The position numbers were made by a program, and so were the translations under genes. A DNA stretch of 32,000 nt from Deinococcus radiodurans R1 = ATCC 13939 = DSM 20539 (GTDB lineage: Bacteria; Deinococcota; Deinococci; Deinococcales; Deinococcaceae), in the NCBI RefSeq assembly GCF_000008565.1, contig NC_001263.1:2160661-2192660 (forward strand), in the 5' to 3' direction. Below are positions 29,472-29,645 of the stretch, piece after piece. A model generated the notes under the pieces. That model was not told the origin of the DNA. It saw only the letters and a program-made list of their open reading frames with translations, and ran no database searches. Every line of letters begins with the position of its first letter. Positions within the stretch are counted from its first letter, which is position 1.

Positions 29472-29645
29472 ATGGCGACTGTTCAATTTGAAAATCCCGA
29501 AACCGGCGCGACCATCGAACTGACCAACCCCGAACTGGGCGAACTGGTGATCGACGACGAAACCGGTGTGGAATACGAGGTCGTGTCCATCGACCCGCCC
29601 CGCCTCGAAGCCGCCCCGCAGGAAGCGGAGGACTGGGGGGAGTAA
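29472..29645 (+). CDS. lysW: Alpha-aminoadipate/amino-group carrier protein LysW (57 aa; absent from the supplied ORF track)
   Basis: My translation is MATVQFENPETGATIELTNPELGELVIDDETGVEYEVVSIDPPRLEAAPQEAEDWGE. The C-terminal EDWGE tail and NPELGELV match LysW. AAGGAG lies 5 nt before the ATG, and lysX is immediately downstream. Confidence 0.85.
   Translation: MATVQFENPETGATIELTNPELGELVIDDETGVEYEVVSIDPPRLEAAPQEAEDWGE

Follow-up and report, generated by a model that had tools for sequence, protein, structure and literature searches.

Can the amino-group carrier of a lysine pathway keep its fold and its role once every ligand of its zinc ribbon has gone? A short gene of Deinococcus radiodurans R1 raises this question, for its 57-residue product ends in the tail of the carrier protein LysW, lies beside the gene of the ligase LysX and contains no cysteine at all. 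We consider it highly probable that this gene is the sole lysW of the organism, that its product is loaded by LysX and that its ribbon is folded, most likely, without zinc. The parts of this reading differ in strength: identity and role as the LysW carrier are close to certain, and truly metal-free folding, as judged from structure models and sequence conservation, is reasonably likely. All coordinates below are positions in the window, the 32,000-nucleotide stretch that was analysed (NC_001263.1, 2,160,661–2,192,660, forward strand).

The lysW gene and the lysine pathway

The features of the locus are as follows.

29048–29407, forward strand: P0002, a 119-residue double zinc-ribbon protein with four CxxC motifs, recognized by PF21344, no EDWGE tail
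29408–29471, forward strand: AT-rich leader ending in the Shine-Dalgarno sequence AAGGAG (sequence read)
29472–29645, forward strand: lysW, 57 codons plus TAA, assigned by family models and alignment; amino-group carrier protein, cysteine-free form
29493–29507, forward strand: former zinc knuckle 1, N8-P-E-T11-G12, aligned with CPxCG of four-cysteine forms
29553–29567, forward strand: former zinc knuckle 2, D28-D-E-T31-G32, aligned with CxxCG of four-cysteine forms
29628–29642, forward strand: C-terminal EDWGE tail, residues 53–57; Glu57 is the predicted attachment point of alpha-aminoadipate
29645–29720, forward strand: very stable hairpin in the lysW–lysX spacer (RNA fold −59.1 kcal/mol, z −7.7)
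29735–30601, forward strand: lysX, ATP-grasp ligase (TIGR02144 LysX_arch, 422.4 bits, cut-off 275.6; PF22626 preATP-grasp, 108 bits)

The reading frame runs from an ATG at 29472 to a TAA at 29643–29645, and the 57 translated residues include neither cysteine nor histidine. A mechanical list of open reading frames opens this frame at a GTG at 29466, two codons 5′ of the ATG and within the Shine-Dalgarno sequence; we place the start at the ATG because about 100 homologues are 57 residues long when counted from it. AAGGAG (29461–29466) ends 5 nucleotides 5′ of this ATG, and thus the strong ribosome-binding site proposed by a sequence-only reading of this DNA is present, as is the 57-codon gene that it described: the translation is identical, and the protein scores above cut-off with both the NCBIfam equivalog model TIGR01206 for lysW (113.3 bits, cut-off 53.2) and PF21344 of Pfam (43.1 bits, cut-off 27). 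In a phmmer search of the PDB, the top match is Thermus thermophilus LysW (3WWL chain A, E 1.8e-16), with residues 9–57 aligned without a gap on residues 6–54, and the second-best match is Thermococcus LysW (5K2M). Judged by these sequence scores, the match to the LysW family lies far beyond chance. At the genome level TIGR01206 gives 111.9 bits for D. radiodurans LysW and 112.5 bits for that of Thermus; since the model scores both forms alike, the curated family is not defined by four cysteines. When the whole genome (3,284,156 bases, four contigs) was searched in six frames, 29472–29645 was the sole match above the lysW cut-off, with weaker matches that include the gene just upstream.

The carrier tail recognized in the sequence-only reading is likewise borne out, as EDWGE stands directly before the stop codon and is invariant in 42/42 sequences of an alignment of LysW proteins from Deinococcota and metagenomes (alignment A1). 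A run of six G (29635–29640) spans the codons of W55, G56 and E57, and a 95-residue public protein (P0004, from two contigs) is identical through G56 and then continues into the spacer; it looks like the product of a one-base slip or a sequencing error, by which the essential terminal Glu would be lost.

Was the gene overlooked? The sequence-only reading called it unlisted, which is true of the reading-frame track that it was given but not of the literature or of NCBI, where relatives are annotated. de Groot et al. (2009; PMC2669436) counted lysW among the genes overlooked in earlier Deinococcus annotations, and their Table 2 has the entry [quoted passage not shown]. A large protein search returned 108 relatives, which carry the names "lysine biosynthesis protein LysW" or "alpha-aminoadipate carrier protein LysW" in NCBI, UniRef and JGI; over 20 named species of Deinococcus are represented, as is Meiothermus granaticius. 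The gene is thus already known and routinely annotated, and cysteine-free LysW is not a new kind of system. In the open-access papers that treat LysW together with Deinococcus or zinc, we found no discussion of the cysteine loss.

The same reading had lysW directly preceding lysX. This is correct as gene order, and the two genes keep that order at 56 loci of the phylum; however, lysX begins 89 nucleotides 3′ of lysW on the same strand, and the spacer between them forms the hairpin listed above. None of 200 shuffled sequences folds as well as this hairpin, which has no T-run and may serve to keep expression of the carrier high relative to that of the ligase. At most other loci, and in other genera, the spacer likewise contains a hairpin, of unrelated sequence; the one in Thermus resembles an intrinsic terminator. 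The core inverted repeat of the D. radiodurans hairpin has one other copy in the genome (C1:202824–202863). A consensus scan of 28900–30700 for promoters and terminators gave no match, with no sigma-70-type promoter passing, and an Rfam scan assigned no family, the hairpin drawing only sub-threshold matches to miRNA precursors. Further upstream, an ABC-transporter ATPase gene (28302–29033, reverse strand; PF00005, 107 bits) is divergent from P0002. Its mirror frame (28299–29036, forward strand) has no family match and looks like a high-GC artefact, as does an 862-residue frame (26764–29352, reverse strand) that overlaps an OYE flavin reductase gene (27121–28233, forward strand).

Genes of the LysK, LysY/ArgC and LysZ/ArgB types lie elsewhere on contig 1, recognized by TIGR01902 (321 bits), TIGR01850 (396 bits) and TIGR00761 (two loci), models that leave lysine and arginine paralogues unseparated. 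A gene list for D. radiodurans (PMC3356886) gives DR_1413, DR_0963 and DR_1420, with DR_2194 as lysX, and we found the pathway genes near the positions that the first three locus numbers imply. A sole carrier, lysX and the pathway enzymes are all present, so that the carrier-dependent lysine pathway is complete and this reading frame encodes its carrier. The terminal Glu is the attachment residue in established LysW work, as outlined in a preprint introduction and in the titles of PDB entries 3WWL, 5EIO and 5K2M. By analogy with that biochemistry, LysX and ATP would join the alpha-amino group of alpha-aminoadipate to the gamma-carboxyl of Glu57, and the acidic globular domain of about 45 residues would then dock in turn on the homologues of LysZ, LysY, LysJ and LysK, while the flexible EDWGE arm would hand the tethered intermediate to each enzyme until LysK frees lysine at the end.

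The former zinc knuckles and their distribution

What has replaced the zinc ligands? In alignment A1, the Deinococcus form and the four-cysteine forms run through both knuckles without a gap, and N8, T11, D28 and T31 occupy the four cysteine columns of the four-cysteine proteins of Thermus, Oceanithermus and Trueperaceae. The sequence-only reading had described a cysteine-less protein and had mapped the two CxxC pairs to the segments FENPETGA and IDDETGV; the translation agrees on the first point, and all four ligand columns fall inside the two segments. That reading had also offered non-homology of the cysteine-free segments to the LysW ribbon as grounds for rejecting it, and the ungapped alignment speaks against such non-homology. 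Zinc ribbons have two CxxC or equivalent Cys/His knuckles, of which this protein, free of both residues, has neither; it is therefore LysW and a homologue of zinc ribbons, and should not be filed as zinc-binding.

We refer to 57-residue proteins with Asn/Thr/Asp/Thr at the ligand columns as D-type, and counted residue conservation in 95 distinct cysteine-free sequences of this type. D28 and T31 are present in 95/95, as are P9, G12 and G32 and also Phe6, which lies on an N-terminal extension; N8 is kept in 93/95, with Ser in the other two, and T11 in 90/95, with Ser in four. Pairwise dN/dS of the D. radiodurans gene against 14 orthologues is 0.02–0.22, at dS up to about 1.3. Such values mark cysteine-free lysW as a lineage trait under strong purifying selection, and with the residue counts they show a working gene whose replacement knuckle residues matter.

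The lysW model matches 325/364 Deinococcota genomes in 59/60 genera, a tally that counts the unpublished genome G324, none of whose sequence was used. No sampled genome combines two lysW forms. The D-type was found in 16/16 sampled genomes of the genus of D. radiodurans and three further genera of its family, in 5/5 sampled genomes of a sister family (uncultured "Deinococcales bacterium" MAGs) and in part of the Thermaceae (Meiothermus sp. ERB_29_2, Thermaceae MAG015 and M. granaticius). The cysteine-free protein is thus the ordinary condition in most of Deinococcus and not a defect of this strain. Four cysteines are found in Thermus, Oceanithermus, Calidithermus chliarophilus, Meiothermus rufus, M. 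cerbereus and some Trueperaceae, such that Meiothermus-grade Thermaceae contain both forms; every LysW sampled outside the phylum (Chloroflexota, Methanofastidiosum, Methanosarcinales and others) has four as well, except for one form in Bdellovibrionales.

That exception, from two Bdellovibrionales MAGs (L121, L126), reads SPITG ... DPETG, with the same residue types as Deinococcus, and is a third cysteine-free form. The second occurs in other Trueperaceae (L060–L063, L133, L134, L144–L146) and has different residues together with a one-residue deletion in knuckle 2. Because Trueperaceae and Bdellovibrionales MAGs have these other forms, the cysteine loss is recurrent, and the cysteine-free state of D. 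radiodurans is one of several independent losses. There is also a half form, the metagenomic protein P0103, in which the first CxxC is intact and the second is gone.

Did the D-type itself arise in a single event? A tree of LysX, which follows the taxonomy codes, has well-supported branches on which the D-type requires a minimum of two changes; the tree was built by a quick method, its only support values are SH-aLRT, and four of its long branches, all in Trueperaceae, are flagged. Loss of the cysteines, or spread of the cysteine-free gene, therefore occurred more than once. Five genomes assigned to the Deinococcus genus (G068, G045, G072, G083 and G110; loci L149–L153) have a four-cysteine LysW as their only copy, and together with the tree they exclude a single loss event. 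In the last four of these genomes the protein is of a divergent four-cysteine type that ends in SVEEDWGE and to which the lysW model gives only about 50 bits, a pattern that suggests gene replacement.

Fold, metal and partner

The ribbon-type beta fold of the globular domain is predicted by two AlphaFold2 models, with no unrelated fold as competitor. A mixed alignment gave a mean pLDDT of 87.6 (90–93 at residues 1–50, about 59 in the tail), and an alignment of 54 cysteine-free sequences only gave 85.7 and the same five strands; the EDWGE tail, at 52–59, is predicted with the low confidence expected of a flexible arm. High-probability Foldseek matches are LysW chains only (3WWN chain B, 3WWL, 5EIO chain C, 5K2M and 3VPB), with a TM score of 0.92, normalized to the target, and an rmsd of 0.9 Å over 46 residues for 5EIO chain C. 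In VIA, the cysteine-free-only model matches three Thermus entries with Z scores of 8.3, 8.2 and 8.0, the best unrelated structure reaching 4.6, and superposition on 5EIO chain C again gives an rmsd of 0.9 Å. These models indicate that the family is read as a LysW fold and not that the fold is stable without an ion, since AlphaFold2 has no metals and may copy the ribbon fold.

The sequence-only reading had offered two proposals, that the carrier folds without zinc or that it relies on a partner. We favour the first, a preference drawn entirely from prediction and conservation. The globular domain would retain the zinc-ribbon topology of Thermus LysW, most likely folded without zinc, and the backbone NH groups of the knuckles, formerly organized by the cysteine sulphurs and zinc, would be capped by the side-chain oxygens of Asn/Asp and Thr in Asx/ST-turn-like arrangements. 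Hydrophobic packing would be contributed by the invariant Phe6 of the three-residue N-terminal extension and by an aromatic residue at position 35 (Tyr35). The different route by which Trueperaceae LysW lost its cysteines, with one residue deleted from knuckle 2, lends sequence-level support to the view that the metal site is dispensable to the domain.

Could another metal have taken zinc's place? N8, T11, D28 and T31, with E7, E10, D29 and E30, might form an oxygen-ligand site in which a hard ion (Mn2+, Ca2+ or Mg2+) assumes the structural role of zinc. Deinococcus is manganese-rich, all four replacement residues are oxygen donors conserved as ligands are, and the Bdellovibrionales form has the same residue types (Ser/Thr/Asp/Thr). 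However, a Thr hydroxyl binds metals poorly, the acidic neighbours are shared with four-cysteine forms and so are no new feature, and the D-type is also found in Thermaceae and an uncultured sister family, which are not known as manganese accumulators; the Trueperaceae form, with its shortened knuckle and other residues, speaks for a domain that needs no ion. We thus regard it as improbable that Deinococcus has a LysW re-metallated with Mn2+ or Ca2+ in place of a demetallated one, with the same solution having arisen or spread in Bdellovibrionales-type LysW.

Slightly less probable still is a cysteine-free ribbon that is only marginally stable alone and is held by the P0002 paralogue or by successive pathway enzymes. 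LysW always acts bound to an enzyme, as in the complexes of the PDB, and P0002, which ends 64 nucleotides 5′ of lysW on the same strand, is a zinc-ribbon paralogue by PF21344 (30.8 bits, cut-off 27) and by hhalign of the LysW profile against its own (probability 95.3%, E 2.4e-8), a profile match by which its N-terminal ribbon is homologous to the LysW globular domain. The D. deserti orthologue of P0002, Deide_13450, figures among the proteins detected in that species. Does the paralogue, then, compensate for the lost cysteines? Its orthologues lie directly 5′ of lysW at all sampled loci of four families, whether lysW is of the four-cysteine or cysteine-free form, and the four-cysteine loci concerned include all sampled Thermus, Oceanithermus-type and other such loci of these families (f1–f4); in Trueperaceae the orthologue is absent beside both types. 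Its presence does not track the loss, and AlphaFold2 is confident for the monomer. As it is conserved beside both LysW types and adjoins four-cysteine lysW just as often, P0002 is not a specific compensating partner: we reject the partner hypothesis on the distribution of P0002 orthologues, and the second proposal of the sequence-only reading finds no support. P0002 is nevertheless an interesting uncharacterized member of the cluster. Proteins of its type are named "hypothetical" or "zinc finger motif protein" in databases, and for LysV as a name of the upstream gene we found no support in the literature. In Thermus the P0002 orthologue overlaps lysW by 13–16 nucleotides.

A decaying or unexpressed lysW, with lysine made by another route, is scarcely credible and is effectively refuted by conservation at the sequence level: although the gene was uncalled in the original genome annotation (PMC2669436) and LysW is missing from the D. 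deserti detected-protein list, which has LysX and Deide_13450 (trypsin-based shotgun proteomics being a weak test for a protein with a single tryptic site, R44, and a C-terminal peptide to which pathway intermediates may be attached), dN/dS is 0.02–0.22, the tail is invariant, the Shine-Dalgarno sequence is strong, the form is conserved in about 100 distinct sequences, and the gene encodes the only carrier, adjoins an intact lysX and has the downstream enzymes elsewhere in the genome.

Relation to known carriers and meaning

D. radiodurans LysW shares with T. thermophilus LysW (OrfF; 3WWL, 3WWN, 5EIO) 57–59% identity by Foldseek, the same model score, the EDWGE tail, the order of strands, a double-ribbon paralogue on the 5′ side and lysX on the 3′ side. 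Where the Thermus protein is a zinc ribbon with CPEC...CEDC, that of D. radiodurans has NPET...DDET and no cysteine, and it differs further in three extra N-terminal residues that include Phe6 and in having Tyr35 for Leu. Archaeal LysW and ArgW (Sulfolobus 3VPB; Thermococcus 5K2M) are alike in fold, tail and the logic of a carrier served by an ATP-grasp ligase; unlike it, they are four-cysteine zinc proteins, some serving arginine as well as lysine, and their own model (NF041070) gives D. radiodurans LysW only 28.5 bits against a cut-off of 75. P0002 is different again, as it keeps all its cysteines and has a second ribbon and no EDWGE tail, while sharing a homologous N-terminal ribbon and a conserved position in the operon.

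The closest analogy for the cysteine loss is found among the C-minus ribosomal proteins. PMC10450194, citing Makarova et al. (2001), describes recurrent disruption of zinc ribbons in L31, L33, L36, S14 and S18, and a tendency of thermophiles to retain the metal site in these proteins. By this analogy, LysW would be another small zinc ribbon that loses its cysteines repeatedly with fold and function kept. Unlike LysW, of which the sampled genomes carry one form, the ribosomal variants are often paralogues within one genome and switched by the supply of zinc. A link to temperature is visible in LysW as well, as Thermus and Oceanithermus keep four cysteines and most Deinococcus do not, but it is a tendency only and not a clean one.

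The understanding of the lysine pathway is unchanged by a cysteine-free LysW. For annotation, lysW is a further case of a small reading frame that falls under a length threshold although an essential pathway is incomplete without it, a point made for the same locus in 2009. For protein chemistry, D-type LysW is a natural experiment in which the ligands of a 45-residue zinc ribbon have given way to a fixed set of Asn, Thr, Asp and Thr. Relatives with four, two and zero cysteines all occur within one phylum, and a comparison of their stabilities would show the route to metal independence and whether loss of the cysteines goes with growth temperature, with the economy of zinc or with oxidation resistance.
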